Below, piece after piece: positions 2,555-57,970 of a stretch of DNA of 57,970 bases. Numbering within the stretch: the first letter of the stretch is position 1; each line of letters opens with the position of its first letter. The notes beneath the pieces were generated by a model. That model saw only the letters and a program-made list of their open reading frames with translations, ran no database searches and had not been told where the DNA came from. This DNA is from Candidatus Tayloriibacteriota bacterium. Its GTDB lineage: Bacteria > Patescibacteriota > Minisyncoccia > Phycocordibacterales > PALSA-1337. The stretch lies in NCBI GenBank assembly GCA_016215455.1, contig JACRJP010000003.1, positions 132,657-190,626 of the forward strand. Direction: 5' to 3'. The position numbers and the translations under genes are program-made.

Positions 2555-2582
2555 AAAAAACACCCACATCTGGGTGTTTTTT
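2555..2582. terminator. Bidirectional rho-independent terminator between convergent genes
   Basis: AAAAA-ACACCCA-CATC-TGGGTGT-TTTTT: perfect 7-bp stem, 4-nt loop, A-run and T-run on either side. Confidence 0.75.
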
Positions 2583-2594
2583 CTTCTTCACACT

Positions 2595-3065: not shown

Positions 3066-3127
3066 GACAAAATTATAGCATGCACCTATTCTTCACTAAG
3101 ACCATATCCGTGGATTACTTCATGTTC

Positions 3128-3166
3128 AAAATAAAAAGCGCCAGCCGACCCGAAGTCGACCAGCGC
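3128..3166 (-). terminator. Rho-independent terminator of the pilin-like orphan gene
   Basis: Minus-strand RNA forms GCGCUGGUCGAC-UUCGG-GUCGGCUGGCGC (12-bp stem including 3 G-U pairs) followed by UUUUUAUUUU. It lies 11 nt after the stop at 3177. Confidence 0.75.
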
Positions 3167-3176
3167 CGTGAAATTC

Positions 3177-3740
3177 TCAACGCAACCACGGTCGAATGAG
3201 AAGATGAATGTCTCCGATCTGGTTGGTGCCAAAATCGTAGATCACCGATCCTTTCAGATCAGCATTTCGATCTACTGCCATTCCATCGATCATGGCATTG
3301 AGATCTTCCGCGAGACGGAGATCTCCTCCAACGACCATCTCTACAAAAGTCGATCCGGGACGAATCCCAGCCGACTGATAAAACGCGTGAGTGTTCATGT
3401 TGACGTAGGATGCGTTCGTAATCACTGTAGTGACTCGAACTTGGTGGAAAATTCCTGCGTCGAGCAATCGCTCTGAGACAAGGATGCTATCCCAACCAAG
3501 ACAGAAACCGTCACGAAACGTCAACGGATGCTCCCGCGTTGCAAAGGTTGTGTTCTTTGCAAAGTGCAAGAATGTTGCTGACTTTACGGCGTCATACTGA
3601 TTCTTGATCGCCGTCCCGCTCGTTCGCTGATAAGTCTTCAGCAAAGGAGGAATTGTTAGCGTAGCAATGACCGCAAGGAACGCCAAAGCGGTCATGAGCT
3701 CGATCAAGCTGAAACCGCGGCGAGAAGAATTTGAATTCAT
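3177..3740 (-). CDS. Type IV pilin-like protein (prepilin N-terminal cleavage/methylation motif); G+C-rich orphan A
   Basis: MNSNSSRRGFSLIELMTALAFLAVIATL carries the G/FSLIEL class III signal plus hydrophobic helix. I chose the ATG at 3740 over the track's TTG at 3770. G+C visibly higher than the flanks. Confidence 0.7.
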   Translation of the reverse strand: MNSNSSRRGFSLIELMTALAFLAVIATLTIPPLLKTYQRTSGTAIKNQYDAVKSATFLHFAKNTTFATREHPLTFRDGFCLGWDSILVSERLLDAGIFHQVRVTTVITNASYVNMNTHAFYQSAGIRPGSTFVEMVVGGDLRLAEDLNAMIDGMAVDRNADLKGSVIYDFGTNQIGDIHLLIRPWLR

Positions 3741-39635: not shown

Positions 39636-39636
39636 G

Positions 39637-40605
39637 CTATCTCTTGGTTTGGCACAACTGATCAAAAATTATTTTTCCAATATCTGTAGTGAGCCAAGAC
39701 ACATACCGCGATACATCGCTTAAAGGCACAAACAATCGCTCTTCTATCTCAAAACCATTCTTATGCGGTATAAAATTTTGTATATTTTTAAGCTTCGCAA
39801 AGTACCTTACCTGCTGAAAGTGCTCGATACATTCTTCACCAAGAAAACCTTTTACTTCAACAGAACCCAAAAGAGAAATAAACTCGCAATCACATTGCGC
39901 TTCCTCCTGTACTTCTCTACGCAGAGCATCTTCAGGTGTTTCCCCTATTTCACATCCGCCACCAGGCAAACTAAAATGTTTCTCTCCAGCATCCCGCACT
40001 ATACAAATATCTCCATTATCTCTACTAACGAAACCGTATATTTGACTAATAGGTATCTGCAGTAAAATCGTGTTAGTGTGATATAAAAATTCATAACTCA
40101 GAGACCGTGCCTTACGGACCGAGAGGATGTAGTTAAATATCTCAAGTATTTGATTATTATCTGTACGAAGTGCTAGTAAAGCACTCGCATCATCTTTTGA
40201 TAACAAGCGTCGTTCTTTTGTTTCTAATGGTTTCCACTCACTATCAATACTGACTATACTTGAATACGTAATCGGTAAAATACTATCCATTGGATATGGC
40301 GAAGAAGGGTCTGCATGGCTAATTTTTATATACCCCACAACCACAACATGTGCAATCTTTACTCCACCTTCTTCCTGTACTTCCCGATGTAATGTTTCCT
40401 GCCAGGTCTCATTATTTTCACGATGCCCGCCTAAAGGATTCCACCAATTATTTTTATCTAGTATCAACATAACTCGATTACTCAAGAAAGGAAAATTAAA
40501 AGGTGTAGTAATATAAGCTCCTTCAGGCAATGTATGCGACTCAACGAATTGAGATGTATAGGTAACTCCCTTTGTCGTAAAGGTAAAAAGTGTGTAATTA
40601 TTCAT
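39637..40605 (-). CDS. Protein with two tandem Nudix hydrolase domains
   Basis: Two complete Nudix boxes: GHRENNETWQETLHREVQEEGGV and GGCEIGETPEDALRREVQEEAQC. Confidence 0.85.
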   Translation of the reverse strand: MNNYTLFTFTTKGVTYTSQFVESHTLPEGAYITTPFNFPFLSNRVMLILDKNNWWNPLGGHRENNETWQETLHREVQEEGGVKIAHVVVVGYIKISHADPSSPYPMDSILPITYSSIVSIDSEWKPLETKERRLLSKDDASALLALRTDNNQILEIFNYILSVRKARSLSYEFLYHTNTILLQIPISQIYGFVSRDNGDICIVRDAGEKHFSLPGGGCEIGETPEDALRREVQEEAQCDCEFISLLGSVEVKGFLGEECIEHFQQVRYFAKLKNIQNFIPHKNGFEIEERLFVPLSDVSRYVSWLTTDIGKIIFDQLCQTKR

Positions 40606-42169
40606 CGAGTTTAGTGTTAATGAGCTTGTTATAGCGCTCTATATTTTTCTCAAACTCTTTTTTCTTATTTTCAGAAGAACCTGAACGCGGTTCGTGGTTA
40701 ATATGATACACACTTGCCGCAATAACTGGTACCACATAATTACCGCCAGCAATCGCTTTTACTCCAAAAAAAGTATCCTCGAGTCCCCAGCCCACAAAAC
40801 TTGTATCAAACCCTCCTACTGATCGAGCTGTCTTTTTTCTCATACTCATATTATGACCAATCACCATAGCCGGAAGATCAAAACATCCGATATGTCGTCC
40901 AAAACCAAAATCCTTGAAATAATTCGTGTCATTCAAAATTTCAATATATGTCGTATGGTCAGAATGATGTATCCCAATCTGATCCTTAACAAGATGTTTC
41001 TTTAATCGCATATCATCGATATCCCACGATACAGGCAAACCCACATCAAGAGATGCACCCTTAGTAAATGTTGTTCCATCTTCAATATTTTTCTTCAAAC
41101 TAACAAAAATAGCATTAGGAATAACTTGATTTCTTGTCGAGTGCTCAAGTAAATAATTATGTGAGAGAAGAATATCTGAATCCAAAAATAAGACCGTATC
41201 GTAGCGTGCTATATCAAGACCAATATTGCGCGCACCAGCTAGTCCAATATTATTTTCTACACGAATAATACGAGGTTGAATTGTGAGAGACCGAATATCA
41301 TCTTTAATACATTCATACAAATTACTCTTTGAACCATCATCGATCAAAATTACATCAAGAGACTTTTTTTGATCCAATGAAAGACTTTGAGACTCAATAG
41401 ACTTAAGTGTTTTAACAATTGTATTCTCCGAGTTAAAACATGGAATGATAATCGACAGAGGTTTAAAATAATTTGTATTCTTTATACTATCTTTTCCAAT
41501 AAGCTCGGTATCAACCAATCTCTTAAACTCAGATTCATAAAAATCATAATTATTACTCATTGAGTTAACCTTCACCTGTAGACTCGGAACATCCATTATT
41601 GTTTCTATCCCGAATCTCTTAGCAAAATTTTGTATTTTAGGATTAAGTGTGCCGAGTTGATCAAACAAAGTTTCTTCTGGTAGATTGAGATTATCTGTAA
41701 TTGTATTCATTTCCGAGCGAGTTACTGGATTTAATTCTTGTTGCCCAACAACCTCCTTTACCAAGTCTTCCTGGTACACAGTCAGAAGATCTCCTACGAA
41801 TGTAGCGTATCCTATACTTGCAATAATCTTTTTGTGAACGTCGAAAAAATCAAGCTTTCTGATCTCGCCAATATGACACTGATTAAAACCAATCGAATAA
41901 GTGAACTTTAGAAAATGTTTAATGTTCTTATTTTGGAGATATATGAACGGCTGTCGCTCAGAAACTTTGCTATCAGTTTCATCTCGTCGTAAGTATCTAA
42001 ACCCACAAATATTGTTAGTGAAATTAATATGTAATAAATCAGAATTCGAAGGACTTTCAAGATATATGGAAAGATCAGATGCAACTGTAGGTAAACCAAG
42101 TTGATCTATAAGCATCTGCAAGACACTAGCTGACTTCTCCTTTGACTCAAGAAAGTAATAGGCTGACAT
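40598..42169 (-). CDS. GT2-family glycosyltransferase with unassigned ~240-aa N-terminal domain
   Basis: The GT-A core has SIIIPCFNSENTI..VILIDDGS..LDSD. I chose the ATG at 42169 (MSAYYFLESK), 4 nt after the upstream stop. Confidence 0.8.
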   Translation of the reverse strand: MSAYYFLESKEKSASVLQMLIDQLGLPTVASDLSIYLESPSNSDLLHINFTNNICGFRYLRRDETDSKVSERQPFIYLQNKNIKHFLKFTYSIGFNQCHIGEIRKLDFFDVHKKIIASIGYATFVGDLLTVYQEDLVKEVVGQQELNPVTRSEMNTITDNLNLPEETLFDQLGTLNPKIQNFAKRFGIETIMDVPSLQVKVNSMSNNYDFYESEFKRLVDTELIGKDSIKNTNYFKPLSIIIPCFNSENTIVKTLKSIESQSLSLDQKKSLDVILIDDGSKSNLYECIKDDIRSLTIQPRIIRVENNIGLAGARNIGLDIARYDTVLFLDSDILLSHNYLLEHSTRNQVIPNAIFVSLKKNIEDGTTFTKGASLDVGLPVSWDIDDMRLKKHLVKDQIGIHHSDHTTYIEILNDTNYFKDFGFGRHIGCFDLPAMVIGHNMSMRKKTARSVGGFDTSFVGWGLEDTFFGVKAIAGGNYVVPVIAASVYHINHEPRSGSSENKKKEFEKNIERYNKLINTKLDE

Positions 42170-42173
42170 AAAT

Positions 42174-43064
42174 TTATCGGGCTTGCATAAGCTTTGCTTG
42201 CAACACATCCCTTTCTATTGCTATGATCTCAGCTATTTCAGGTTGAAATACTTTACGCACATCAAACATACCCAAATAACCAAATTCAGGCTGTGTTGGC
42301 AAAATATCTTTTATTTTTGGAAAATTCTCCCATGTCATCTGAGGTAATTCACCCAAAGGAACGTGTTGAGGAATCTTATGCACCAACTCATCAGTAATTT
42401 TTATAATTTCGGCTATAAGACTAAGGGTGGCCGAGTGTGTAACTATTACAGGTAAACAATCTCGATACTCCTCTGTTTTTTGACTCAATGAGTAAAGGAA
42501 GTCATACTGCCGAAAGGCAAACTCAGCATAATTTTCACCAAAACTTTCAAAATGTCCTTCGAGAGCAGGGTAGCGTAACTTCCCATCTTTATCACAATGA
42601 TCTCCAAATCTATACAATAGATTCTTATACGTAAAAGTCTGCTCCCAGTATGCATCCCAAGCATACTTCAGTGGTTCAAAATAATCCCCATCCTTAAAGC
42701 CCTCTGGGAACCTAATAACACCCTGATCAAGCTCTCTGAGACGCGTATCTGGCTCGACCTCGAACTTAATATCCTCAGGAATACTACCGATAATCAGATC
42801 TACTGTTTCAAGTGCCCTCTTCTTAGTGGAACTCATTATATGAGTCTTCTTTACACCTTTTTCATGACACATAGTAATAATCCCCTCACATATCTCACGT
42901 GCCTTTACTTCTTGATCTGGCTTAAGAGAACTATCTCGATTACACGATACAAGTCTATCGTAATCCTCAAGATGACGGACTCCAATTATTTCGTCTGAGA
43001 CCTGAGTATGAGTAGGAATATGGTCAAATTCATTCATAATGACAATAGAAGGTACACTTGTCAT
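42174..43064 (-). CDS. Histidine phosphatase superfamily-like protein
   Basis: GVRHLE, SSTKKRALET, LRELDQG, FGENYAEF, VTHSATL. 296 aa, larger than typical members. Confidence 0.65.
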   Translation of the reverse strand: MTSVPSIVIMNEFDHIPTHTQVSDEIIGVRHLEDYDRLVSCNRDSSLKPDQEVKAREICEGIITMCHEKGVKKTHIMSSTKKRALETVDLIIGSIPEDIKFEVEPDTRLRELDQGVIRFPEGFKDGDYFEPLKYAWDAYWEQTFTYKNLLYRFGDHCDKDGKLRYPALEGHFESFGENYAEFAFRQYDFLYSLSQKTEEYRDCLPVIVTHSATLSLIAEIIKITDELVHKIPQHVPLGELPQMTWENFPKIKDILPTQPEFGYLGMFDVRKVFQPEIAEIIAIERDVLQAKLMQAR

Positions 43065-45235: not shown

Positions 45236-46732
45236 ATGAAAATATACAAAATCGCTATTTTGAGCCTAATAATGACTGCGTTCTTTAGTTTTGGAGTATC
45301 ACAAGCTTCAGCATTCGAACTTTCTAACTCAGGTGTTCTACCAAAGGTAGGAGGTAGTATGTGTAAGACTACTGGAGAATACGAGACAGAGTGGCATTTC
45401 AATATTAATCAAATCACAACTGGAACACAGCCTGCGTCTATCACTGTAACCTTTGCTAATGCTGGAACATTTGAGATTCCTTTCTGGAAACTCACCGGTG
45501 GAAATGCTCACTATCTCTTGGCAACTTCAACAATGCCAGATCTCTACCCTGGTATTCTCACTGATACACTACTTTCTGCTTCAGCAGTAGTACCCGAAGG
45601 TTACAGTGGAAACTTTGTACTTTCACACTGGCCTTGTATCAAACCTCTCATAGTAACAAAGACAGCGACAACAGCGTTTGATCGAAATTGGAACTGGATA
45701 ATCAACAAGACAGCCGACACAAATACTCTCACCCTTGCAGATGGTCAACAGATGCCGGTCAACTACACTGTCGCAGTTGATGCAACATCAGCTGACAGTA
45801 ATTGGAATGTTTCAGGAGTAGTTACTGTAACAAACCCTCTTGATAACCCAAGTGCAACTATCGAAAGTATCAGTGATGTCATGAGTACAGCTGGTTCTGT
45901 AGCACTTGATTGTGGAATAACCTTCCCTTATGTTCTCCCGTCAGGCTCTTCACTTTCATGTACCTACAACCAGACTCTCACAGGTCCCGTTGATCAAACA
46001 AACACAGCGACAGTTGCGGTAAGTGGTCTTGCTATCGGAAGTTCGACATCAACTCCAGTTACCTTCAGTACTCTTCCAACAAATGAATATGACGAATGTG
46101 TCACCCTTTCAGATACAAATACTAAAGGACCACAGCAGCGGGTATGTGCTACTGACACTCAGAAAAACTTCACCTACACTGTCACATTTGGTAAAGATGC
46201 AGGTGCTGATGTAAATCTTGTTTGCGGTATCACAAACTATGGCAACACAGCAACATTCACAACAAACGACACCGCAGCAACAAGTTCAAAAACATGGACA
46301 GTTGATGCAACAGTAGCATGTTCACTTGGTTGTACCCTCACTCAAGGATACTGGAAGACTCACAATGTCTCTTTCAAAGGTGGAGCACGACCTGATGATG
46401 CATGGAACCTTATTGGTGCAGGAGCAGAAAATACTCTCTTTGGTGTAAGTGGCAAATCATGGTTCACTAACTTCTGGACTGCTCCAGCAGGAAATGTGTA
46501 CTATAACCTCGCTCACCAGTTCATGGCAGCAACACTCAACAAGTTGAATGGTGCAAGTACTCCAGCTTCAGTAACAGCAGCCCTTACATCTGCAGGTAAT
46601 CTCTTGAACTCAACAACACCAGCAGCTGCAGCAAATCTTAAGGGTGCTCAAAAAACAACTTGGACAACTCTCGCAGGTATTCTCGGAAGTTACAATGAAG
46701 GAACAACAGGTCCTGGACATTGTTCTGAGTAA
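45236..46732 (+). CDS. Secreted Thr/Ser-rich protein with Ig-like repeats and Cys-containing C-terminal domain, function unknown
   Basis: Signal peptide MKIYKIAILSLIMTAFFSFGVSQASA, beta-rich repeats, and C-terminal CSLGCTLTQGYWKTHN..GPGHCSE. Confidence 0.75.
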   Translation: MKIYKIAILSLIMTAFFSFGVSQASAFELSNSGVLPKVGGSMCKTTGEYETEWHFNINQITTGTQPASITVTFANAGTFEIPFWKLTGGNAHYLLATSTMPDLYPGILTDTLLSASAVVPEGYSGNFVLSHWPCIKPLIVTKTATTAFDRNWNWIINKTADTNTLTLADGQQMPVNYTVAVDATSADSNWNVSGVVTVTNPLDNPSATIESISDVMSTAGSVALDCGITFPYVLPSGSSLSCTYNQTLTGPVDQTNTATVAVSGLAIGSSTSTPVTFSTLPTNEYDECVTLSDTNTKGPQQRVCATDTQKNFTYTVTFGKDAGADVNLVCGITNYGNTATFTTNDTAATSSKTWTVDATVACSLGCTLTQGYWKTHNVSFKGGARPDDAWNLIGAGAENTLFGVSGKSWFTNFWTAPAGNVYYNLAHQFMAATLNKLNGASTPASVTAALTSAGNLLNSTTPAAAANLKGAQKTTWTTLAGILGSYNEGTTGPGHCSE

Positions 46733-47609: not shown

Positions 47610-48122
47610 TTATACTGACTTGAGGTAACCCACAAGTCCATCAGTATCTTCAAAGAAAATAGTATTATTTTTGAACCACTGTTCATTCCTTTTAGAAAGA
47701 GTGAGATCTTTTCGCGATGAGCTCGCAATAATACCTTTCGATGTAATCACCTTATACCCTCTATGAAGAGCTCCAATAGATGTATCCTGAATACAGCCGT
47801 TAGCATTCAATCCCATAAGTAGAACTGTTCCGATGTGTACATCCCTAAGTATTTCATCGAGATTAGTATGAGTAAAACCACTATTATTTGCTTTAATAAT
47901 CACCTTTGAATTCTTGAGCAATTTCCTTAATTTTAAGGTGGTTTCACCTCTAATAATACCTCCAGCCTTGTATTCAAGAAGTATAAAAGGTAATTTCTTT
48001 ATTACACAAATATTGATAATTTCTTTCTGATTATCTAAAAGTTTATTAGAAATAGAGACGGGAAAATTTCTAAGAAAGAAATCTTGCATATCTATAATGA
48101 TTACAGCTATATTTTTCTTCAT
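47610..48122 (-). CDS. Isochorismatase-family cysteine hydrolase
   Basis: 170 aa from the ATG at 48122: MKKNIAVIIIDMQDFF..LMGLNANGCIQDT. The track's 228-aa form reads through the tRNA gene. Confidence 0.8.
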   Translation of the reverse strand: MKKNIAVIIIDMQDFFLRNFPVSISNKLLDNQKEIINICVIKKLPFILLEYKAGGIIRGETTLKLRKLLKNSKVIIKANNSGFTHTNLDEILRDVHIGTVLLMGLNANGCIQDTSIGALHRGYKVITSKGIIASSSRKDLTLSKRNEQWFKNNTIFFEDTDGLVGYLKSV

Positions 48123-48209
48123 AGGAAATCGCGATATTGATAAGTTCAAGCCCGTAACTGGTTTTCGATACTTATCTTTTTCAGAGACCTCAATCAACCT
48201 TACACAACT

Positions 48210-48283
48210 TGGCTGCGGGACTTGGATTCGAACCAAGGTGACAGCTTTCAGAGAGCTGCATCCTACCACTAGATGATCCCGCA
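48210..48283 (-). tRNA. tRNA-Gln (anticodon CUG), CCA encoded
   Basis: rc = TGCGGGA TC ATCT AGTGGTA GGAT G CAGCT CTCTGAA AGCTG TCAC CTTGG TTCGAAT CCAAG TCCCGCA G CCA. Full cloverleaf, U1-A72 and G73 as in bacterial tRNA-Gln, canonical T-loop. Confidence 0.9.
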
Positions 48284-48328
48284 ATGGTTTACTCACCCCT
48301 TTTACATATTGTGTCGGAAATGGTACCT

Positions 48329-48364
48329 TAAAAACCCTTTTTATTCAACATTTAAGGGTTTTTA
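48329..48364 (-). terminator. Possible terminator at the end of the surface operon
   Basis: 11-bp inverted repeat TAAAAACCCTT / AAGGGTTTTTA with a 14-nt loop. The stem is AU-rich and overlaps the last codons, so this is weak. Confidence 0.35.
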
Positions 48365-49683
48365 GGAGGTATCACCATAACATCACTATGAGGTGGTGTT
48401 GGAAGTACAACAGGAGGTGGTACTTCACCTTGTGCTGTATCCGCCTTGTCCATTGCTCGTATACGACGCATATAGCGGATAACATGATGACCTACAAGGT
48501 AATGGATAATGAGACTGACAAGGCCTGCAAGGATGACTCCTGACAATATATAGACAATATAATCCTTTATGAATTTAGTTATAACAAAAGGAGGTTGAAT
48601 ATCAACTGATGCATCACGAACATTCCCTGCCTTATCAATTGCTCGTACAATCACCTGCATATCTGAACCAGCTACAATTGGTACTTGGAAAGGACTATCT
48701 GATTCAACGAATACTGGAGAGACTGTTACCGGTTGGTTCTTATCAATCACACCAACTTCATAGTGATCAATACCTGAAAGATTATCAGTCGTAAAGAATG
48801 AAACGAGAGTTCGTTCAACAAGCATTGCTGCAGCAAGAAGATAGCTTGCTTCAGGGGTAAATTCAGCTGGTGGTGCCGTATCAATTCGTATAAGATAATG
48901 TCCGGTTGTACCCCACGCAACACCCTTCTTTGCTTTAATGTGGAAGTACCACAAACCATCAGTGAGATTATCATATGACTTCGAAGTGTCATTTGATTCA
49001 ACAGTATTATCAGGAATTGTTGAAGGTTTATTATCAAGTTCATAACTAAAACCATCAACACCTGGATCACGTTCCCATGAAAAACTCGGGTTGTTATTGT
49101 TAGACCAATCTGACTGTACTGGATGTGTCTCAGAGAAGATTTTTACACCTTCAGGTGACTTTGGTAGTATCGTATACTCCGCTCGTCCAACTTCAAGACC
49201 CGCCTCAGTTCCCAATCCATCATTCAATAATACTCTTGAGTTTGAGTTGATTGAAATAACAGCATGACCTGTACCGATTGCTTTGAATGTCACCATACCA
49301 ATAAGACCTGAACCGGTGACAATACCGCTTGGAACAACACCAACATAGCTTGCTGTTCCTTTTGTGTTGTCATACTTCGGTGGTTCAGCCCACACTCCAA
49401 CAATCGAAGTACCACTTGAAGGTGACATAATCGAAAGTTTATTCTTATCATAGTTCAATCGAATCTCAATCCCATTGATACTTGCTCCACGAGTGTTCAC
49501 AAGGATCGGAACCTGAAATGTTGATCCTTCCACGAAACTTCCCGTACGAGGAGAGAGTTGAACCTCAACACGAGAGACAAGCTTCGAAGCGTCAACAGAA
49601 ACAGTTTGGGCATGTAAAGGCACACTACTCGTACTCAGCAGTAGACCTACTATTACATATATACTTAATCTGATTCGCATCAT
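48352..49683 (-). CDS. Membrane-anchored surface protein with N-terminal cohesin-like module (paralogue 3)
   Basis: Signal peptide. VEVQLSPRTGSFVEGSTFQVPILVNTRGASINGIEIRLNYDKNKLSI..GMVTFKAIGTGHAVISINSNSRVLLNDGLGTEA. Ig-like middle and C-terminal TM helix (IVYILSGVILAGLVSLIIHYLVG). ATGA overlap with the upstream gene. Confidence 0.7.
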   Translation of the reverse strand: MMRIRLSIYVIVGLLLSTSSVPLHAQTVSVDASKLVSRVEVQLSPRTGSFVEGSTFQVPILVNTRGASINGIEIRLNYDKNKLSIMSPSSGTSIVGVWAEPPKYDNTKGTASYVGVVPSGIVTGSGLIGMVTFKAIGTGHAVISINSNSRVLLNDGLGTEAGLEVGRAEYTILPKSPEGVKIFSETHPVQSDWSNNNNPSFSWERDPGVDGFSYELDNKPSTIPDNTVESNDTSKSYDNLTDGLWYFHIKAKKGVAWGTTGHYLIRIDTAPPAEFTPEASYLLAAAMLVERTLVSFFTTDNLSGIDHYEVGVIDKNQPVTVSPVFVESDSPFQVPIVAGSDMQVIVRAIDKAGNVRDASVDIQPPFVITKFIKDYIVYILSGVILAGLVSLIIHYLVGHHVIRYMRRIRAMDKADTAQGEVPPPVVLPTPPHSDVMVIPPKNP

Positions 49684-50819
49684 TTTCCAATATCTTTAAT
49701 TTCTTTGTGGATCGTATTTTCAGCCGTATTGATATCTTTAGTAATTTCATTAACCTCTTTACGTGTAGCAGCTAATGTCTTCTCATGAACACGCTCTGTC
49801 ATATCTTTACGCAACACATCAAAAGATTCATGGAGAGTATTTTCTGCTTCAGATACATCACGTTGTATCTTTGATCGAATATTTCTAAAATGAAAATTAA
49901 TTCGAAGTAACAAATACAGAATGATAAGAATGAGAAGTATAAATGCTATCTGAGCTTCCCAACTCATATCTGAAATGATACTGCCCACTTCAATCAAAAG
50001 AGCATTTGATGTGTCACTTTGTTTATCTTCACCCTTAACAATAACTGCTGATACACTATATATTCCTCGCTTAAGAGATGTTGGAACTGGTATCTCAAAA
50101 CGACCATCATTATCAGTCGTTGTTACAATAAATACCTTCGATGTATCCTGTGCTACGAATGTTACAACCACTTGTGTCTTTGGCACTACAGAACGTCCGA
50201 CTATCGACATCCGGCCCTTTTGAACACCTCGAGCGATCTCAGGAGGGGTCAGAATCACTTCTAACACTTTAGTGATCTCTGGCTGAACTTCTACTGGTGT
50301 AACTTTTGGAATCTCTTTTTTAGGAGGTGCTACTTTCTGTACCGGTTTTACTATACTAAACGCAGCTCCACGCATACCATTCATAACCTCAGTACCCTGA
50401 CCATCATTAGCTAAAATATGTCCCGATGAAAACGATACTGATCCCTGTCCAGGAGCAATAGCCCGTACAGTAACAGTTACAACCGTACCCTGATCTCCTT
50501 GAAAACCTCCGAGTGATACTCCTTCAAAACTTACTGTACCTTTTGAGGCAGAGAAAGCTGGTTCTGTTACCCAAAAATTAAGAACTGATCCGACCTTAGA
50601 GACAGACTCTATCGAAAAAATAGAAGATGGTAGTGATAGTGTACCTGAAACAGCATTAAGAGAAGTACTCTCTCCCGAAACAAGGACCTTTAGTGTAATA
50701 CGTTCACCAACTTCATACGTACCACTCGATGGACTGACAGAAAGAGTCGCCGCATGCGCAGAGAACGGTAACAAACCAAAGATACAAATACATAAAATTA
50801 TCGAATAGATTTTTGCCAT
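49680..50819 (-). CDS. Membrane-anchored surface protein with N-terminal cohesin-like module (paralogue 2)
   Basis: Signal peptide. LSVSPSSGTYEVGERITLKVLVSG..LNAVSGTLSLP..VTVRAIAPGQGSVSFSSGHILANDGQGTEV. TM helix AQIAFILLILIILYLLL and a charged helical cytoplasmic tail. Confidence 0.7.
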   Translation of the reverse strand: MAKIYSIILCICIFGLLPFSAHAATLSVSPSSGTYEVGERITLKVLVSGESTSLNAVSGTLSLPSSIFSIESVSKVGSVLNFWVTEPAFSASKGTVSFEGVSLGGFQGDQGTVVTVTVRAIAPGQGSVSFSSGHILANDGQGTEVMNGMRGAAFSIVKPVQKVAPPKKEIPKVTPVEVQPEITKVLEVILTPPEIARGVQKGRMSIVGRSVVPKTQVVVTFVAQDTSKVFIVTTTDNDGRFEIPVPTSLKRGIYSVSAVIVKGEDKQSDTSNALLIEVGSIISDMSWEAQIAFILLILIILYLLLRINFHFRNIRSKIQRDVSEAENTLHESFDVLRKDMTERVHEKTLAATRKEVNEITKDINTAENTIHKEIKDIGK

Positions 50820-51718
50820 TTCTTTTTGAAAACAAATACTCCACCAATCACAACTACTACAAGTATACTAAGAATTCCGTACTGTTGGTACCATGGAGTT
50901 GGGTGTAACGGTGGAATAGCAACAACAACACTATTACCATTTTTATCAAAAGCCTTGATATAGACCCTTTTATTGAGTTTTTGATCAGTAAGTACATACG
51001 GGCTTTCTGCTTCAACAAAATCACCGAACCTACCTTCACGTACTTCATAGTGATCAATCCCAACCCCTTTATCCTGACTTGTAAAAACAACAAAATACTG
51101 ACCATCAAAAAGATTTGGATCATTGACAACAAGAGGAGCAAAATCATCTGGAGCTTGAGTGTCGATAATAGGTGCTACAACTTGTGTATCCCCTTTCAAC
51201 GATTCAGTGACTCGAAAGTCTACTGGGGTCATTGATATTTTTACATGAGCACCTGTCCCATCATTTCGCAAAGCACGCAATGATTCTCCACGCATAACAC
51301 CCTGACCACTCGAGTGTGCAGTAAGAACTACCGAAAAAATAGGTTGTTGCGTACCGAGTACACCCCCTGGAGTAATTCCAGAAAATACAATTTTTTCATA
51401 CTGAGGATCACTGTCGACAACACGAGGTTTCTCAATCCAAAAATTTATCGCTGAATTTCCTTCGCGAATCTCTTTTATCTTAAAAAGCTTTTTCGGAAAA
51501 AGAAATGTACCTTCTACTGCATTGATGAGTTCTCCTTGTGTGTCGAGGAGAATTGGTAGGATAAATTCTTGACCTTGAGTCAAAGACTGGTTACTCGAAA
51601 TAACCTCAGGTGTCACAAACAGCTTTGCAGCGAAGGTTGGTAAAGGAAAAACAACTATACTCATTACACAGAGGATAAAGATACTTCGTACAAATATATG
51701 AGAATACAATGTTTTCAT
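50798..51718 (-). CDS. Membrane-anchored surface protein with N-terminal cohesin-like module (paralogue 1)
   Basis: Signal peptide. LFVTPEVISSNQSLTQGQEFILPILLDTQGELINAVEGTFLFP..VVLTAHSSGQGVMRGESLRALRNDGTGAHV. C-terminal TM helix ILSILVVVVIGGVFVF. Confidence 0.7.
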   Translation of the reverse strand: MKTLYSHIFVRSIFILCVMSIVVFPLPTFAAKLFVTPEVISSNQSLTQGQEFILPILLDTQGELINAVEGTFLFPKKLFKIKEIREGNSAINFWIEKPRVVDSDPQYEKIVFSGITPGGVLGTQQPIFSVVLTAHSSGQGVMRGESLRALRNDGTGAHVKISMTPVDFRVTESLKGDTQVVAPIIDTQAPDDFAPLVVNDPNLFDGQYFVVFTSQDKGVGIDHYEVREGRFGDFVEAESPYVLTDQKLNKRVYIKAFDKNGNSVVVAIPPLHPTPWYQQYGILSILVVVVIGGVFVFKKKWQKSIR

Positions 51719-51727
51719 ATCATTACA

Positions 51728-53050
51728 TTATCCAGTCCAGTAAAAAGCCATGATACTAAAATCGACTAAATCAATCTTATCATCAGCATTCAACTTTTCG
51801 CCTTCAATAACCTTAAACTGAGTACTCAACTGTTTCTTATACCAAAATGCCGCAATCGAAAAGTCGACAAGGTTAACTCGATCATCTCTGTTTAAGTCCC
51901 CCTTAATTCCTTTTTTTACAACAGTAATAGGAACATTCTTATCTCCTACAAGAAATCCAACAATGGTTCCAAATGAACTTACCTCTCCTTCGATTGCGGC
52001 TTTAGATTTAGTTTCATGCTTTCCTTTTTCAAGTACTGCACTATTGAAATTAAGTAGATACACACCATTAGCATCACTCTTTTTCTTAATAAATAACTCC
52101 TCTTCAGAATGCACACTAATAGTAATATCGGATGATGGAACACTTTGTCCGAAAATGACAATGTTATCACCCTTCTTAACCTCACTCTTATCAACAGCTA
52201 TAGTTGGAGCAATAAATATTCCACCGATTTGAGTTGTTACACCAGAAGTTATGAAAATAGGAAACGTAAAGGGGTGTGAGCGTACTTGATTTGAATCTTC
52301 TCCATATACTGAAAATGTATAATTTCCCTCTGAAATTCCACTCAAAGTAACAGAAAAATTACTATCAGGACCTGCAATAGTAGTTATAGCAACTTGCCCA
52401 TCTTTAAGAACGGTTACTCGACTGAGAGGAAATGCTCGGCCAGAAAGTACTACACCTGTGCCAACCGAAGGTGCTACAGAGCCTCCACCACCCCCTCCTC
52501 CGCCTCCACCACCAGACCCTGAACTCGCTACTGGAGTTGAAGAAATTTGTGTTGATGTAGCAATTGCATTACCAAAAGCATCCTGTACGACCACAACAAA
52601 ATAGTATGTTGTTCCATTTGAGAGTCCTGTTACGGTACTCGAAAGTACATTACCAACATCAGTATATGTATATGGACCTCCCGATGAAGTCGATTTTCCA
52701 ACTCGATATTCTTCAGCTGTCCATCCAGCAAGACCTTGTGCTGAAGTCCATGTGAGACTCACTTGTCCACTACCAGGTGTGGCTGATACCGTTGGTGTTG
52801 AAACATATGGGTATCGAAGAAAACCACCACCGAGAGTATATAGAGCTGAGAGACTCCTTCCTTGAGCGATTTCAGCTACTGTTCCCCACATTTGAAAACT
52901 TCCTGACGAAGAAAAACCACTGCCTCCAGGAGCAATAATAGGATCAAGAACTTTGAAGGAGCTTGAGTTAAACTCCTGAGCCAAAGATAGCGCAGGGATA
53001 ACTGCACATATCAATAATATTAGAATCGATACTCCTTTTCGCATGATCAT
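51728..53050 (-). CDS. Secreted Fn3/Ig-like protein ending in a dockerin-like double Ca-binding repeat
   Basis: Signal peptide, Fn3-like segment (GQVSLTWTS..EEYRVGKS..GTTYYFVVVVQDAFGN), a G11 linker, and C-terminal GDLNRDDRVNLVDFSIAAF ... KLNADDKIDLVDFSIMAF. Confidence 0.7.
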   Translation of the reverse strand: MIMRKGVSILILLICAVIPALSLAQEFNSSSFKVLDPIIAPGGSGFSSSGSFQMWGTVAEIAQGRSLSALYTLGGGFLRYPYVSTPTVSATPGSGQVSLTWTSAQGLAGWTAEEYRVGKSTSSGGPYTYTDVGNVLSSTVTGLSNGTTYYFVVVVQDAFGNAIATSTQISSTPVASSGSGGGGGGGGGGGSVAPSVGTGVVLSGRAFPLSRVTVLKDGQVAITTIAGPDSNFSVTLSGISEGNYTFSVYGEDSNQVRSHPFTFPIFITSGVTTQIGGIFIAPTIAVDKSEVKKGDNIVIFGQSVPSSDITISVHSEEELFIKKKSDANGVYLLNFNSAVLEKGKHETKSKAAIEGEVSSFGTIVGFLVGDKNVPITVVKKGIKGDLNRDDRVNLVDFSIAAFWYKKQLSTQFKVIEGEKLNADDKIDLVDFSIMAFYWTG

Positions 53051-53056
53051 ACTATT

Positions 53057-56000
53057 TTACCTGAACAATATTCTTCCTCCTAAGAATTTAAGAGATGGTC
53101 CGATAAATTTAATTCCTGAACGAGATGATGAAGCGGGCGCCGCGGTTGGTGTTGCACTGTCTTCGTTACTGTATGCACTATCACCTATAGCATTTGTTGC
53201 TTTAACACGATAATAATACAACGTACCATTAGTGATCGCTCCATCCCAGTAACTTGTTACAACACCAAGGGTTGCAATGAGAGTTGTTGGAGATGTTGTA
53301 GTATCTCGATATAGTTTATACCCAGTAATTGATGAACCTCCATTACTTGCGGGAGTTACCCATGTTAAATTTACTCTTCCATACCCAGCAACCGCATCAA
53401 GAGACGTTGGAGCGTCTGGTACAGAAGCTGAAGGACTTACCTGCACAAGGATTCGCGAACCATAGAGATTACTACCGTTTGATGTCGCTACAACATCAAG
53501 TGTTGCAGCACTGCCTGGCATTGTCATAGCTGATGATTGTTCGCGTTCAATGACGTCAGTGATTGTTGATCCTGAAATATCAGTCGGTCCAGAAGTGTTT
53601 TGAATTTTGATATCTGAAGTACCTCCTGAAACTGAGTTACCTTCATGAATAAATACATACGCATTCCCCGTAGTCCATTCTGCTGGGTCCCATGATGTCA
53701 GAAAGTTTTGCAGAGATGTTCCAGAAGAAAATAGAGTGTTAGCAAGGAGATACTGGGGTTCGAGATATGTAATACCAGTTGAAGCAACGACATTAATATC
53801 ATACGTACGGAGCTCATCAACAGTTCCATTATCAATAAAAGCAATTTCATTTGAAGCAAGTGTTGCGATTGAAGCTTCGTGAATTCCTCCACCAGCACCA
53901 ACTGAAAGGCTTGTTCCTGATTGTGTCCATGTTGAACCATCAAAATCATACGAACGAATTTCTTCTATATCATCAGCATAAAAAGCAATACGCGATGAAG
54001 ATAGGGCGGTCATTGCTGGATGTCCCACATTCGAGATAGCAAGAGAACTACCTACTTGTGCCCAGTTCGAACCATCAAAATCATAGGCGCGGAGCGAGTC
54101 ATTGTTAAAATCTATAAAAGCAACTCGCGATGAAGACAACTTACCCAGAGCAGCAGTGCCCGCCCCAGTAATAGTAAGACCACTTCCGACCAATGACCAA
54201 GTAGAACCATTAAAATCATAAGCGCGGAGCGAGTCATTACTTTCATCAAAAAGGGCTATTCTCGTCGAAGAAAGAGCGGTAATAACAGGATACCCTAAGC
54301 CAGTAATAGTTAAATCGCTACCGACTTGTGCCCATGTGTCAGTGCCTTCGGTGTAATCATACGCGCGTAAGGCTTTGTTTGTATAATCTATATATGCGAT
54401 ACGAGTTGAAGAAAGTGCCGAAATTGAAATGCGAGTATATGGTCCTCCGAGACCGAAATTCCCTACATTTGTCCAATTAGTTCCATTGAAATCTTTGACC
54501 TGAAGATTATTAACAGCGTCATCGATAAATACTATTCGATTTGAAGATAAAGCTGTCATCGTTGAGTTGGCACCAGGAAATATAGTATTATCTCCATTCC
54601 CAACCTGAAAAATCGAAGACTCCTGACTAGCAACAATCTTCGCATTATAAATATCATATGATGCGGTTGACGCTGTAGTAGAAGCTACAATGCGATAATT
54701 TCTACCAGTAGTTGGAGTAAAAGATACTCTTACACGAGATGGTGACGATGTAGCAACACCGTTTGTAACAATCATTTTCTTAAAAGTCCAACTACCGAAA
54801 CTACCATTATCTTCTTCAAGAGCAATCCCGACCTGACCGTGTATATCAGTTATACGTGCCTGGCCACGCCCTCCAACCTGTCCTCCGGTTATTTCTCCGC
54901 CACCTCCTCCTCCACCAGGAGCACCTCCACTACCTCCGAAGTCTCCGTTATCTCCTCCTCCACCTCCCGAACCACAGTTCACGTTTGAATTTCCGTTACC
55001 ACCATCTGGGGCTGTTGCATCGTTCGTATCTGCAGTACCACCCACAGCACCACCGTTTGATGCGTCACAACTTGCACCGGCACCTCCGGCACTTGTACTA
55101 GCTGCAGTACCTGTGTTTCCTGCCGCATACGGACCAGCAGCACTACCTCCTCCTCCACCCGAGTCACCAGTACCGTTTCCTGCACCGCCGTTACCTCCAG
55201 CAAATTCAACTTGACCAACTGAGTTTGCTGTCGTCCCACCAGTACCTGCAGTAGCTGTTCCTGTTCCGGCACCACCATCAGCTACCACTTCCGTTGTTCC
55301 CCACGTACTATCATTTGATGTTGTAGAGTCAGCAGCGGTTGTTGCTGCTACAACAAGAGTTTTTGAACCAGAGGTTGTTGTGGTAGATCGTGCATACGCT
55401 CCTCCTCCACCTCCTCCTCCACCGGAGTTAGCCACAACACCACCAGCACCACCGGCACCCCACAATTCAACAACTGTATACGATACACCTCGTATAGGTA
55501 CATAGGTAAAAGTACCTGAAGTTGTATATGTTGTAGAAGATGAAACTTGTGTATTTCCATATGTCACCTCTGCAGAAAAGGTCGGTGAATCACTCCATTT
55601 AGTACTATCGTAATACCAATATTTTGGATATGTAAGTGCCGAGGAGCTTGTATTTGTTTTACCTGTCTCTCGATTTCCTATTTCAATCTGTGTCTCGGTT
55701 GCCGCAAGAGCTGTGGCATCTTGAAGAACAACGACACGTGCAGCGATAACACCTTTTTGTACCGCACTATTACCTGTCACCACAACATAATCATGCTGAC
55801 CTGATGTAGGTGTAAACGAAGCCGAACGATAGATGCCGTACGTGTTAGAGTTCGAGAATGTTACTGTCGCAACAGTAGCTGAAGTTGTAGCGTTCTTAAG
55901 ATAAATACTTGAACTCACTGCTGATGTTGTACTCGCAACAACTTCAAAATAATAGGTTGGTGATGTATACGCTGTGGTATCAATTTGTACTCTTTCTGAT

Positions 56001-56188
56001 GATGTTGCATATGCACCCGAAGCAGATCCGACATATCCATTGATAATGTTTATTTCCTGACGAATCTTCTGGTTTACCGCATACGCAATCTTAATCTGAT
56101 GTGGCCAGTTCGAAAGAACAAGTCCAAGAGACAGCGAGAAGATGAGTGTTGATTTTAGAAGTTTCTTTATGATTTTCATATACCGCAT
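53057..56188 (-). CDS. 1043-aa surface protein: beta modules + Gly-rich domain + six-repeat propeller-like region + Fn3
   Basis: N-terminal anchor/signal. YTVVELWGAGGAGGVVANSGGGGGGGGAYA then about 200 aa of G/A/T/N-rich sequence, six ~45-aa repeats, and Fn3 (GRVNLTWVTPASNGGSSITGYKLYRD..YYYRVKATNAIGDS). TAATG overlap with the upstream gene. Confidence 0.8.
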   Translation of the reverse strand: MRYMKIIKKLLKSTLIFSLSLGLVLSNWPHQIKIAYAVNQKIRQEINIINGYVGSASGAYATSSERVQIDTTAYTSPTYYFEVVASTTSAVSSSIYLKNATTSATVATVTFSNSNTYGIYRSASFTPTSGQHDYVVVTGNSAVQKGVIAARVVVLQDATALAATETQIEIGNRETGKTNTSSSALTYPKYWYYDSTKWSDSPTFSAEVTYGNTQVSSSTTYTTSGTFTYVPIRGVSYTVVELWGAGGAGGVVANSGGGGGGGGAYARSTTTTSGSKTLVVAATTAADSTTSNDSTWGTTEVVADGGAGTGTATAGTGGTTANSVGQVEFAGGNGGAGNGTGDSGGGGGSAAGPYAAGNTGTAASTSAGGAGASCDASNGGAVGGTADTNDATAPDGGNGNSNVNCGSGGGGGDNGDFGGSGGAPGGGGGGGEITGGQVGGRGQARITDIHGQVGIALEEDNGSFGSWTFKKMIVTNGVATSSPSRVRVSFTPTTGRNYRIVASTTASTASYDIYNAKIVASQESSIFQVGNGDNTIFPGANSTMTALSSNRIVFIDDAVNNLQVKDFNGTNWTNVGNFGLGGPYTRISISALSSTRIAYIDYTNKALRAYDYTEGTDTWAQVGSDLTITGLGYPVITALSSTRIALFDESNDSLRAYDFNGSTWSLVGSGLTITGAGTAALGKLSSSRVAFIDFNNDSLRAYDFDGSNWAQVGSSLAISNVGHPAMTALSSSRIAFYADDIEEIRSYDFDGSTWTQSGTSLSVGAGGGIHEASIATLASNEIAFIDNGTVDELRTYDINVVASTGITYLEPQYLLANTLFSSGTSLQNFLTSWDPAEWTTGNAYVFIHEGNSVSGGTSDIKIQNTSGPTDISGSTITDVIEREQSSAMTMPGSAATLDVVATSNGSNLYGSRILVQVSPSASVPDAPTSLDAVAGYGRVNLTWVTPASNGGSSITGYKLYRDTTTSPTTLIATLGVVTSYWDGAITNGTLYYYRVKATNAIGDSAYSNEDSATPTAAPASSSRSGIKFIGPSLKFLGGRILFR
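53800..54580 (-). repeat. Six tandem ~45-codon coding repeats (propeller-blade-like)
   Basis: Consensus ALSS(S/T)RIAFID..N.SLRAYDF(D/N)GS.W.QVGS.L.I. The anchor motifs recur every 132-145 nt (near 54557, 54425, 54280, 54145, 54010, 53865). Boundaries are approximate. Confidence 0.7.
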
Positions 56189-57970
56189 TATTCACTAACT
56201 GTCGTATCAGAAGGAGTCGTATCACTCACAGGTACCTCTGGCACAGGTTCTTGTACAACAGGTTCCGGACTTGGTGTTGAGACAGGCTCTTCACTTGATA
56301 CTGGTTCTGATGGTGTACTTGGTGTTGATGTTGCCTCAGGTGCCGGAGACGGAGCTGGCTCTTCAGCTACTGGTGGTGTCGACGTAGCTACTGGATCAGT
56401 TGTTGTTCCTGTAGGAGTCGGAGTAGGTGTTGGTGTTGGTGTTGGTGTCGACGAGACCGTAGATGTAGCTATACCATTTCCACACTTACCTTGCTCGGAC
56501 TGTAGTATACCATTTGCCACAAACATACAGACTGGTTGTCCTGTTACACGATCAGAGATTGTGATACCTGACGCAGCAAGCTGTGAAGGATCTGGCTCAA
56601 CAGTCAAAGATTTTGTTGTCATAGCGTTAGAAACTACTGATGCAGCATGCATTACTCCTTGTTTGATGTCGACACCAAGAGATACCATCCAATCAGAGAC
56701 AGTTGTGATAATAGAAGTTGAATCTCCTGAATTTGATGGAGATCCTCCACCACTATATGTTGATGATGCCGCGAGAAGTGCCTCGATATTTGCAATACGA
56801 CTCTCTAGTACATCAACCTTCTTTACTTGTTCTTGCAAACCAGCAAGAGTGAATGTTGCGAGCTTATACACATCAACTCCCTTTCCATTTGCTGAAAGAA
56901 CTTCAGAAGGTGCTTCTTCTGCTATCAATCCAATACGGAGAGGACTTGTTTCTGATTCAGTATTGTAATGATATCGAGCAAATTTCATATCCTTGATTGT
57001 CTTAAGGAATGACACTGTCTCTGATTCAGAAAGATATGTAATATCTTTCTTAGCTGATCGTGTTGATACATTCACAAACGAAGTTCCTGCAACATCACCG
57101 TCTACATACAATTTGTAGTATGGTGAAGTAGTTCCGATACCGACGTTGCCTGATGCATCTATACTAAGACTTGGTGATGTTGTTGGCGCTCTATTCAAAT
57201 CAAGTACCTGAACAATATCCTTAACTGCGCTTAATGTGATAATCGGGAGTGCTGAGAAGTTTACTTGCTTGAAACCATATATATCTACAGATACTAATTC
57301 AGGGAATGACTCTTCGATGTTCTGAGCGATCACACCAATTTGAGTTGATGAACCAAAAGCAAATTGAGGATATTGTTCATATTTCCAGTTATATGTTGAT
57401 GGTCGGAGTGAAGCAATCTTATCAAGAGCTCGAGGTAATTCTTGGATATTTGTTTTTAGGTTGATGTCAGAAGAACATGTACCTGTGAGAGTTGTACCGT
57501 CAGCGTCCTTCACACAACCTGTTGTACCAGTACCGATACGAATATCTCCGTTAACATCGAGTGTATCACTTGCGCTTGATTTACCGACGGCAACTTTAAT
57601 ATCAGTACTCTTAATGAGGGCGAGACCGATATTAGCAGCCAAACTTGTTGATGAAGCGATACGGAACGACTTATCAGATGAAAGGTATCCCATAGACCAT
57701 GCATTCACATCATCTGTAAACTGGAATACTGAATCCCCTGTTCCACTACCGATTGAAACTCCTCCAGCAAATGTTGATGTTGCTGTAGTACTTGTTGCGT
57801 AGATGTAATCAGCAACGATTGCTCCTGCCACTGAAAGTTTTGCGTATGGTGATGTGGTACCAATACCTAATCTATTATTCGTATTATCCCAGAAGAGACT
57901 TGAAGATGTAGCAATAGCTGATGCGCCGTTACCAAATGGAATGAAACCTGAACTCAAACTTGCCCAACCA
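56188..57970 (-). CDS. Tail-fibre-like surface protein with two internal S74-type intramolecular-chaperone modules; N terminus probably beyond the right edge
   Basis: The reading frame stays open past the ATG at 57957 to the window end. GIGTTSPYAKLSVAG and GIGTTSPYYKLYVDG motifs, SSDINLKTNIQELPRALDKIASLRPSTYNWK..IGVIAQNIEESFPELV, and a second copy TRSAKKDITYL..RIGLIAEEAPSEVL. (TP)6 and P/S/E/T-rich tail. Confidence 0.8.
   Translation of the reverse strand, partial: GWASLSSGFIPFGNGASAIATSSSLFWDNTNNRLGIGTTSPYAKLSVAGAIVADYIYATSTTATSTFAGGVSIGSGTGDSVFQFTDDVNAWSMGYLSSDKSFRIASSTSLAANIGLALIKSTDIKVAVGKSSASDTLDVNGDIRIGTGTTGCVKDADGTTLTGTCSSDINLKTNIQELPRALDKIASLRPSTYNWKYEQYPQFAFGSSTQIGVIAQNIEESFPELVSVDIYGFKQVNFSALPIITLSAVKDIVQVLDLNRAPTTSPSLSIDASGNVGIGTTSPYYKLYVDGDVAGTSFVNVSTRSAKKDITYLSESETVSFLKTIKDMKFARYHYNTESETSPLRIGLIAEEAPSEVLSANGKGVDVYKLATFTLAGLQEQVKKVDVLESRIANIEALLAASSTYSGGGSPSNSGDSTSIITTVSDWMVSLGVDIKQGVMHAASVVSNAMTTKSLTVEPDPSQLAASGITISDRVTGQPVCMFVANGILQSEQGKCGNGIATSTVSSTPTPTPTPTPTPTGTTTDPVATSTPPVAEEPAPSPAPEATSTPSTPSEPVSSEEPVSTPSPEPVVQEPVPEVPVSDTTPSDTTVSE

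Follow-up and report, generated by a model that had tools for sequence, protein, structure and literature searches.

The window analyzed here (the whole stretch of 57,970 nucleotides, about 58 kb, from contig JACRJP010000003.1 of a Candidatus Tayloriibacteriota bacterium) ends in six open reading frames (ORFs), P1–P6, all on the minus strand, and this report concerns chiefly the dockerin protein P4 and the three cohesin-module proteins P1–P3 encoded there. From the window end inward, the frames are P6 (56188–57957 and on to 57970, >589 aa), P5 (53057–56188, 1043 aa), P4 (51728–53050, 440 aa), P3 (50798–51718, 306 aa), P2 (49680–50819, 379 aa), and P1 (48352–49683, 443 aa). All six had been listed at these coordinates in the initial annotation, a reading of the DNA letters, and all were confirmed, as were the five junctions between them, which are, in the same order, a 1-nt overlap (TAATG), a 6-nt gap, a 9-nt gap, a 22-nt overlap, and a 4-nt overlap (ATGA). 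The P6 frame is open through base 57970, with no in-frame stop between 57958 and 57970, and the N terminus of P6 is therefore cut by the window end. Because consensus scans of the locus for promoters and terminators returned nothing above chance, it is the packing of the genes, with overlapping or abutting reading frames, that points to co-transcription of P1–P6.

P1, P2, and P3 share a paralogous N-terminal module of ~140 aa (26–30% identity by BLASTP; E = 8e-15 for P1/P2, 5e-12 for P1/P3, and 5e-18 for P2/P3). In P1, the module spans residues ~40–176 (window 49156–49566) and is followed by two more beta domains, a transmembrane helix at residues 375–393 (48505–48561), and a Pro-rich, predicted cytoplasmic tail. 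In P2, it spans residues 24–158 (50346–50750) and is followed by a second beta-sandwich (residues 194–261), a transmembrane helix at residues 291–309 (49893–49949), and a predicted cytoplasmic helix of ~70 aa. In P3, the module spans residues ~31–172 (51203–51628), and a second beta domain (residues 185–266) precedes the transmembrane helix at residues 279–297 (50828–50884). Each of the three proteins thus has a single C-terminal transmembrane helix by hydropathy, and an N-terminal signal-like hydrophobic segment was seen by hydropathy in P2, P3, and P4. The initial annotation had described P1–P3 as paralogues with a signal peptide and a C-terminal transmembrane helix; the paralogy and the helices stand, whereas the N terminus of P1 lies under the threshold of the hydropathy scan and its signal peptide was called by eye. 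The predicted topology places the cohesin module outside the cell on one or two immunoglobulin (Ig)-like spacer domains and a short tail in the cytoplasm.

The initial annotation had also read these modules as cohesin-like and had proposed a check against the Cohesin profile, and both the family and the fold bear this out. P1 matched Pfam Cohesin (PF00963) over residues 52–150 with 32.0 bits, above the gathering threshold of 24.1. The AlphaFold2 model of the P2 module has predicted local distance difference test (pLDDT) values of 94–98, and in a Foldseek search against the Protein Data Bank (PDB), cohesins made up 41 of its top 44 matches, with target-normalized template-modeling scores of 0.65–0.76, root-mean-square deviations of 2.3–3.3 Å, and sequence identities of 9–18%. 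The top matches include 6kgf_C (5.7e-10), 2xdh (ranked sixth), and 1aoh, and the cohesins matched span types I, II, and III as well as the non-cellulosomal Archaeoglobus cohesin. The P2 module thus has the beta-sandwich (jelly-roll) fold of ~140–150 aa that is typical of cohesins. The possibility that the three modules are unrelated Ig folds was thus not borne out. In addition, a family profile built from 23 sequences matched almost only cohesins among the PDB sequences (best 5aoz_A, E = 3.6e-5). Family profiles were needed because single-sequence phmmer searches against the PDB sequences gave only marginal matches, to a cohesin for P1 (E = 0.026) and to a dockerin for P4 (E = 0.54).

P1, P2, and P3 form separate orthologous groups, with about 55%, 42%, and 32% identity, respectively, to the window proteins, which suggests paralogues of some age and not duplications of recent date. 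Among the orthologues, the ectodomains are conserved (column conservation 0.70–0.72 for that of P1), whereas the transmembrane helices and the cytoplasmic tails drift.

P4 consists of a signal peptide, a module of ~62 aa directly after it (the N-module, residues 24–87; 52790–52981), an Fn3 domain, a poly-Gly linker, two Ig-like sandwiches, and a dockerin (residues 383–440; 51731–51904). In the AlphaFold2 monomer, the Fn3 domain occupies residues 88–171, the poly-Gly linker is disordered, the Ig domains occupy residues 199–267 and 272–369, and helices fill residues 394–436, while residues 21–80 are of low confidence. The protein matched Pfam Big_6 with 32 bits, and the Foldseek matches of the full-length model were dominated by tandem Fn3/Ig arrays. 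No C-terminal transmembrane segment was found in P4 by hydropathy. The P4 family comprises >1,596 matches, of which the best 120 align over the full length at 52–63% identity, and several relatives are named "dockerin type I repeat-containing protein" by NCBI. Since this level of identity extends over many lineages, P4 is too conserved for a host-specific adhesin and looks like a conserved stalk/adaptor or structural element.

The two dockerin repeats of P4 are DLNRDDRVNLVDFSIAAFWY and KLNADDKIDLVDFSIMAFYW, and the two segments quoted in the initial annotation as a dockerin-like ending are present at residues 384–402 and 419–436. That P4 ends in a dockerin is supported by its family: 32 of the 38 aligned P4 orthologues matched Pfam Dockerin_1 (PF00404) at E ≤ 0.01 (best 8.1e-7). 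In addition, a profile made from the final ~65 residues of the family matched mostly dockerins among the PDB sequences (best 2y3n_B, E = 3.1e-7), with all nine matches below 1e-3 being dockerin-bearing chains. Ca2+ loop 1 carries D385, N387, D389, N393, and D396 at positions 1, 3, 5, 9, and 12, and these Asp/Asn positions are invariant or nearly so across the family; the corresponding residues of loop 2 are K419, N421, D423, D427, and D430. Position 1 of loop 2 excepted, the duplicated Ca2+-loop and helix segments have the architecture of a dockerin, and the tail helices (residues 394–402, 410–419, and 428–436) were modeled at pLDDT 84–94. The dockerin is, moreover, the most conserved region of P4 (column conservation 0.77).

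The P4 module shares with type I dockerins (2y3n_B, 1daq, and 4fl4_A) a duplicated segment of ~22 residues, composed of an EF-hand-like 12-residue loop and a helix, and the near symmetry of its two repeats, which at the type I recognition positions have L-V at loop positions 10–11 and DFSI(A/M)A in both. The symmetry of the type I dockerin repeats underlies a dual binding mode, and by analogy the symmetry in P4 is compatible with two binding orientations, or with two cohesins bound at once. Unlike type I dockerins, the P4 module has aromatic-rich helices (FSIAAFWY and FSIMAFYW, instead of the usual S/T...LLKRYLL), no acidic residue at position 1 of loop 2, and, in many orthologues, a Cys pair around loop 1; unlike the type I dockerins of enzymes, it sits on a structural stalk. 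The Cys pair brackets the loop as KCPxKGDLNxDC (in the alignment around window residues 378–392), is either present or absent as a pair, and is lacking altogether in the P4 of the window; a few orthologues have an alternative pair (KC-DLNEDGRC). The pair around loop 1 is probably a disulfide staple.

The distribution of P4 was examined with an alignment query against one genome per GTDB species, a single-protein query having given only two loci. P4 relatives were found in at least 471 species-representative genomes, with varied flanks around the core, and the following locus-level counts are drawn from 84 fetched loci with a P4 relative. As in the window, where P4 is the sole dockerin protein beside exactly three cohesin modules, each of the 84 loci has exactly one dockerin ORF. 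The cohesin ORFs, each with a single module, number two in 46 loci and three in 33. In 83 of the 84 loci, a cohesin ORF follows P4 within 600 nt on the same strand, with a median gap of 4 nt, so that the gene order, whose conservation had been proposed as a check, is indeed conserved. P3 lies directly downstream of P4 in nearly all loci, and the orders observed are P4-P3-P2 (40 loci), P4-P3-P2-P1 (27), P4-P3-P1 (8), P4-P1-P3-P2 (6), and P4-P3 (3). P1 is optional, being present in ~40–50% of the loci depending on how ORFs of ~580 aa are assigned (33 in the orders P4-P3-P2-P1 or P4-P1-P3-P2).

A P5 relative was detectable in one of the 84 loci (L068), and a P6 relative lies upstream of P4 in nine. 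The six-gene unit envisaged in the initial annotation therefore does not hold: the conserved unit comprises four genes, P4, P3, P2, and, optionally, P1. Where the record titles are informative, they point to lineages of the Candidate Phyla Radiation: Parcubacteria/Paceibacterota and Nomura-, Magasanik-, Uhr-, Taylor-, Staskawicz-, Zambryski-, Niyogi-, and Vogelbacteria. Nine third-party-annotation metagenome-assembled genomes (L046, L052, L061, L066, L071, L074, L076, L078, and L080) that carry the cassette are labeled in their records as 'uncultured Gammaproteobacteria bacterium' or as 'Candidatus Saccharibacteria'; such titles look like placeholders or misassignments and are unfit for describing the taxonomic distribution.

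We regard it as probable that the four genes form a non-cellulosomal, membrane-anchored cohesin-dockerin tethering cassette of a Parcubacteria/Paceibacteria-type bacterium belonging to the Candidate Phyla Radiation (CPR). P4 would be exported by the Sec pathway, and its C-terminal, Ca2+-loop-bearing dockerin would plug, presumably in a Ca2+-dependent manner, into the cohesins of P3 and P2 and, in loci that have it, into that of P1. P1–P3 would be type I membrane proteins, each with a signal peptide, an outer cohesin on one or two Ig-like spacers, a transmembrane helix, and a short cytoplasmic tail. In the predicted geometry, P4 would be held at the cell surface as a stalk of two Ig domains, a poly-Gly hinge, and the Fn3 domain, with the N-module distal, where it probably engages a partner, either the variable upstream fiber-like proteins (here P5 and P6) or a structure on the host surface. 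The cassette would serve in attachment or in the envelope. The initial annotation had proposed a three-socket membrane scaffold that displays dockerin-tagged cargo. The membrane sockets are retained, whereas a scaffoldin is not, because one module per ORF was found and no multi-cohesin ORF occurs in the window or in the 84 loci; the scaffold consists of two to three separate, distinct monovalent anchors for one dockerin protein. The cargo, in turn, narrows to P4 itself, since neither the window nor any related locus encodes another protein with a dockerin.

Several observations weigh against these assignments. P2 and P3 alone gave no match to Pfam Cohesin at E < 1, the alignment of the cohesin family profile covers just the N-terminal half of the PDB cohesins, and P1 and P3 are assigned the cohesin fold through their paralogy with the modeled P2. 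On the dockerin side, the P4 of the window scored 12.6 bits against Dockerin_1, under the threshold of 22.9, and position 1 of loop 2 is Lys instead of Asp/Asn and is variable in the family, so that the second Ca2+ site may be degenerate. Finally, a single dockerin protein is matched with two or three distinct anchors.

One alternative is that the cohesin and dockerin folds are real without pairing with each other. The dockerin would then be a Ca2+-stabilized, EF-hand-like cap or have some other ligand, the ligands of the cohesin-like sandwiches would be glycans or proteins of the host, and the genes would be linked through a shared pathway instead of a complex. The low identity of the modules to solved cohesins and the degenerate first position of the second Ca2+ loop are consistent with this, as are the known non-cellulosomal cohesin-like modules with other roles, for example, those of C. 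perfringens (2jh2 and 2vo8, both among the Foldseek matches). Nevertheless, we consider it unlikely, given the tight linkage of a single dockerin ORF to cohesin genes throughout the 84-locus set, the recurrence of this linkage in three other architectures, where just the modules at the two ends of the dockerin protein are kept, and the strong conservation of the dockerin within P4, as expected under a conserved protein partner.

The other end of P4 relates the cassette to a second CPR surface system. The N-module has a column conservation of 0.61, yet its pLDDT in the AlphaFold2 monomer is <50. In 8 of the 38 P4 orthologues, the N-module region matched the NCBIfam model PamT (NF058579, "CPR-type pilus protein PamT"), most strongly in the orthologue P0122 (residues 9–80 against model positions 8–80 of 241; 43.8 bits, E = 2e-11). 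The matches cover model positions ~5–80 in the strongest cases and extend up to position 145 in weaker ones; the P4 of the window scored 23.4 bits, and all of these matches lie far below the equivalog cutoff of 240. By sequence, the likeness to PamT is that of a shared N-terminal module, not of the whole protein. In Ca. Mycosynbacter amalyticus, PamT has been predicted to form the tip of the Pam pilus, and its description is that of an Ig-like domain which is truncated and takes up a donor strand; the pam operons also encode membrane-anchored accessory proteins and have a co-localized tail-fiber-like gene (bioRxiv 10.64898/2026.03.03.709456).

An exhaustive profile search found the N-module in 646 representative clusters (representatives P0146–P0294 among them), always right behind the signal peptide, in proteins of 72–640 aa. 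In the sampled proteins, its companions are Ig, Fn3, or lectin domains and, in very many cases, a dockerin. Downstream of three N-module/dockerin architectures other than P4 (607, 261, and 259 aa) lie between one and three genes for cohesin modules, whereas the one sampled N-module protein without a dockerin has no cohesin neighbor, which is weak evidence, as its contig measures just 3.5 kb. Because the 261-aa protein of L086 consists of approximately the N-module, Fn3, and the dockerin, and so keeps little besides the ends, the two ends look functional and the middle appears to be a spacer of variable length. From these sequence comparisons, the N-module appears to be a widespread CPR "head", usually with a dockerin tail and adjacent cohesin genes. 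At the locus with the 607-aa protein (L085), the upstream gene (2015–3718) encodes a 567-aa protein with a weak match to Pfam Gly_rich_2 that echoes P5, which suggests that Gly-rich secreted proteins are recurrent neighbors of N-module/dockerin genes.

The PamT likeness raises the question of whether the cluster instead encodes a Pam-like donor-strand-exchange pilus, with P4 as the PamT-type tip, P1–P3 as anchored chaperones or terminators (analogues of PamC, PamD, and PamR), and an incidental likeness to cohesins and dockerins. Besides the PamT matches, a conserved N-module of low confidence in the monomer would be in keeping with a fold that depends on a strand from a partner. C-terminal transmembrane helices are also present in PamC, PamD, and PamR, and a tail-fiber-like gene co-localizes with pam operons (bioRxiv 10.64898/2026.03.03.709456); P6 is tail-fiber-like as well. 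However, the P2 module fits solved cohesins, no PapD/FimC-type chaperone is among its Foldseek matches in the PDB, and P1–P3 gave no match to a Pam family in NCBIfam at E < 1, so that P1–P3 were rejected as Pam chaperones. Similarly, a scan of 16 window proteins with NCBIfam, which may lack models for PamA, PamB, and PamE, gave no PamA/B/E-like pilin. As the PamT match is partial and the P2 module does not have a chaperone fold, the cassette does not qualify as a Pam pilus, and this explanation would also leave the highly conserved dockerin unaccounted for. We consider it improbable, even more so than folds that do not pair, although the two readings are not fully exclusive, since the N-module of a tethered P4 could still be involved in strand exchange.

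A minimal cellulosome for polysaccharide breakdown is very improbable. Cohesins and dockerins are hallmarks of cellulosomes, and cohesin and dockerin genes expressed in situ in another CPR lineage, Cand. Shapirobacterales, were read in this way by Bell et al. 2022 (PMC9123182). At the present locus, the initial annotation had noted that no glycoside hydrolase is present, and in the Pfam and NCBIfam scans the six proteins showed no glycoside hydrolase, carbohydrate esterase, polysaccharide lyase, carbohydrate-binding module, or other catalytic domain. The sole dockerin-bearing protein is an Fn3/Ig stalk, each cohesin protein has a single cohesin, and neither the window nor any of the 84 loci contains a second dockerin ORF. 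In the absence of both a dockerin-tagged enzyme and a multi-cohesin scaffoldin, the cellulosome reading of this locus is largely refuted, and these results argue against applying the interpretation of PMC9123182 to loci of the present type.

Least probable of all is a prophage or phage-tail remnant in which P6 and its neighbors are viral structural genes, since, against the two Peptidase_S74 domains of P6, its matches to many PHROG tail-fiber families, and a weak match of the P4 Fn3 region to PHROG central tail fiber J, the P4-P3-P2(-P1) cassette is kept on the chromosome in the species-representative genomes with varied flanks, P1–P3 are membrane proteins, the base composition is even along the whole window, and the ten downstream neighbors scanned with Pfam are cellular genes (isochorismatase, TspO, LysE, and glycosyltransferases among them), with no capsid, terminase, or integrase.

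A tethering cassette of this kind would, by analogy, have its closest functional counterparts in cellulosomal bacteria, in the monovalent cohesins that serve as anchors there: OlpA and OlpC of C. thermocellum (PDB 4dh2) and ScaE of R. flavefaciens. In both cases, each envelope-fixed anchor has one cohesin, and the anchor captures (here by predicted pairing) a dockerin-tailed secreted protein; in the ScaE–CttA pair, the cargo is a non-enzymatic dockerin-bearing adhesin, as P4 is non-enzymatic. The P2 module superposes on OlpC, CipA, and ScaE-type cohesins (Foldseek). Unlike these anchors, P1–P3 have a C-terminal transmembrane helix instead of S-layer homology (SLH) repeats or a sortase signal, no scaffoldin or enzymes accompany them, two or three distinct anchors occur per conserved dockerin protein, the host is a CPR bacterium of reduced genome, and P4 carries a distinctive head module. 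Non-cellulosomal cohesin and dockerin modules were reportedly surveyed by Peer et al. in 2009. The cassette resembles such modules, for example, the Archaeoglobus fulgidus cohesin (2xdh), in having cohesins and dockerins without a cellulosome, and differs from them in being a tightly linked, widely conserved operon of fixed architecture with membrane anchors. With the Pam pilus (Troman et al. 2026, bioRxiv 10.64898/2026.03.03.709456), it shares a CPR-specific occurrence, components that would be exported by Sec, accessory proteins with C-terminal transmembrane anchors, a tail-fiber-like neighbor gene, and the PamT-like N-module; it differs in the cohesin fold of its membrane proteins, which are not of the PapD/FimC type, in the dockerin on P4, and in that no PamA/B/E-type pilins were found among the window proteins scanned.

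Individual members of the cassette are already labeled as cohesin or dockerin proteins in databases, and full-text literature searches returned no description of the cassette as a system. SEML1_0315, an essential dockerin protein in Southlakia (PMC10633639), was considered as a member of the same cassette and set aside, being a stand-alone Ig-repeat protein of 927 aa that is unrelated.

The CPR, or Patescibacteria, account for a large part of the diversity of bacteria, and a life attached to hosts is presumed for them. With very small genomes and no outer membrane, they must make and fix their surface structures in ways of which little is known. The cassette offers a testable pair, one dockerin and two to three cohesins, conserved over hundreds of species. 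If confirmed, it would mean that a cellulosome connector has been reused as a general membrane-tethering device in the CPR, and it would speak against taking cohesin and dockerin genes in CPR metagenomes as a sign of cellulose degradation. The shared N-module ties the cassette to the Pam pilus and hints at a common CPR toolkit for surface appendages.

A more far-reaching version, which we put forward as speculative and hold to be rather unlikely, would make the cassette the membrane socket of a modular plug-and-socket attachment organelle widespread in the CPR. The membrane cohesins would replace sortase, SLH, or outer-membrane anchoring, and the N-module, as a homologue of the head of the Pam-pilus tip protein, would accept strands through an incomplete Ig-like fold and so capture interchangeable, lineage-specific giant fibers. 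One conserved adaptor could then show fast-evolving host-recognition fibers such as P6 and P5, and the N-module-plus-dockerin superfamily, with stalks from ~260 to 610 aa, would supply adaptors of differing reach.

P5 and P6 are lineage-variable large surface proteins outside the conserved core. P5 has a Gly-rich region (residues ~240–450), six repeats of ~46 aa (residues ~540–815) with the motif ALSSxRIAxxD...LRAYDFxGSxW, a C-terminal Fn3 domain that scored 21.9 bits against Pfam fn3, under the threshold, and an amphipathic tail. P6 matched Pfam Peptidase_S74 (PF13884) with 84 bits over two stretches (threshold 22), corresponding to two intramolecular chaperone domains, and ends in an acidic Pro/Thr-rich tail. 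Neither P5 nor P6 has a dockerin or, by hydropathy, a hydrophobic segment. The coupling of the cassette to tail-fiber-like adhesins, as the initial annotation had it, thus comes down to an adjacency that is semi-conserved.

Across the loci, a large protein, often >1,000 aa, recurs upstream of P4, and 18 of 59 upstream ORFs have an acidic Pro-rich tail like that of P6. Giant ORFs (2,000 to >3,100 aa, many of them cut by the contig end) with P6-like acidic Pro/Thr/Glu-rich tails often precede the cassette (L001, L012, L033, L044, L061, L072, L080, and L081 among others). The amphipathic tail of P5 is SGIKFIGPSLKFLGGRILFR, and the proteins encoded upstream of P4 in L068 (1592–2947) and L079 (2–9316) terminate in tails that resemble it, RIKFIEGRIKLIGQ and LKVKGSLKVK. 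A tail of this type could be a strand-donating or sorting tail. A C-terminal donor-strand tail shared by the upstream proteins was considered and dropped, the evidence being too thin with P5-like tails only in these two loci.

In other genomes, a gene for a serine-hydrolase-like protein of ~330 aa (Pfam Beta-lactamase2 for the copy in L086/L087) often lies 0.4–0.7 kb upstream of the cassette (L010, L011, L013, L015–L017, L025, L029, L036, L038, L046, L048, L052, L086, and L087). As the window has no copy, this gene was regarded as unrelated and not as a part of the cassette.

On the downstream side of the cassette, a 228-aa ORF with a GTG start (47610–48296, minus strand) overlaps a tRNA-Gln gene (48210–48283, minus strand). 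Since its Isochorismatase match starts only at residue 64, its true start probably lies past the tRNA, at about M58 ('MKKNIAVII'). A divergent ORF ~1.6 kb downstream of the cassette (45236–46732, plus strand) encodes a Cys-rich secreted protein of 498 aa, close in size to PamA; it was rejected as a Pam pilin, because it matched no Pfam or NCBIfam family and no similarity to PamA was detected. Approximately 6–10 kb downstream of the cassette, GT4 and GT2 glycosyltransferase genes cluster with NUDIX and histidine-phosphatase genes (38502–42208, minus strand), and this cluster may be linked to envelope or glycan synthesis.

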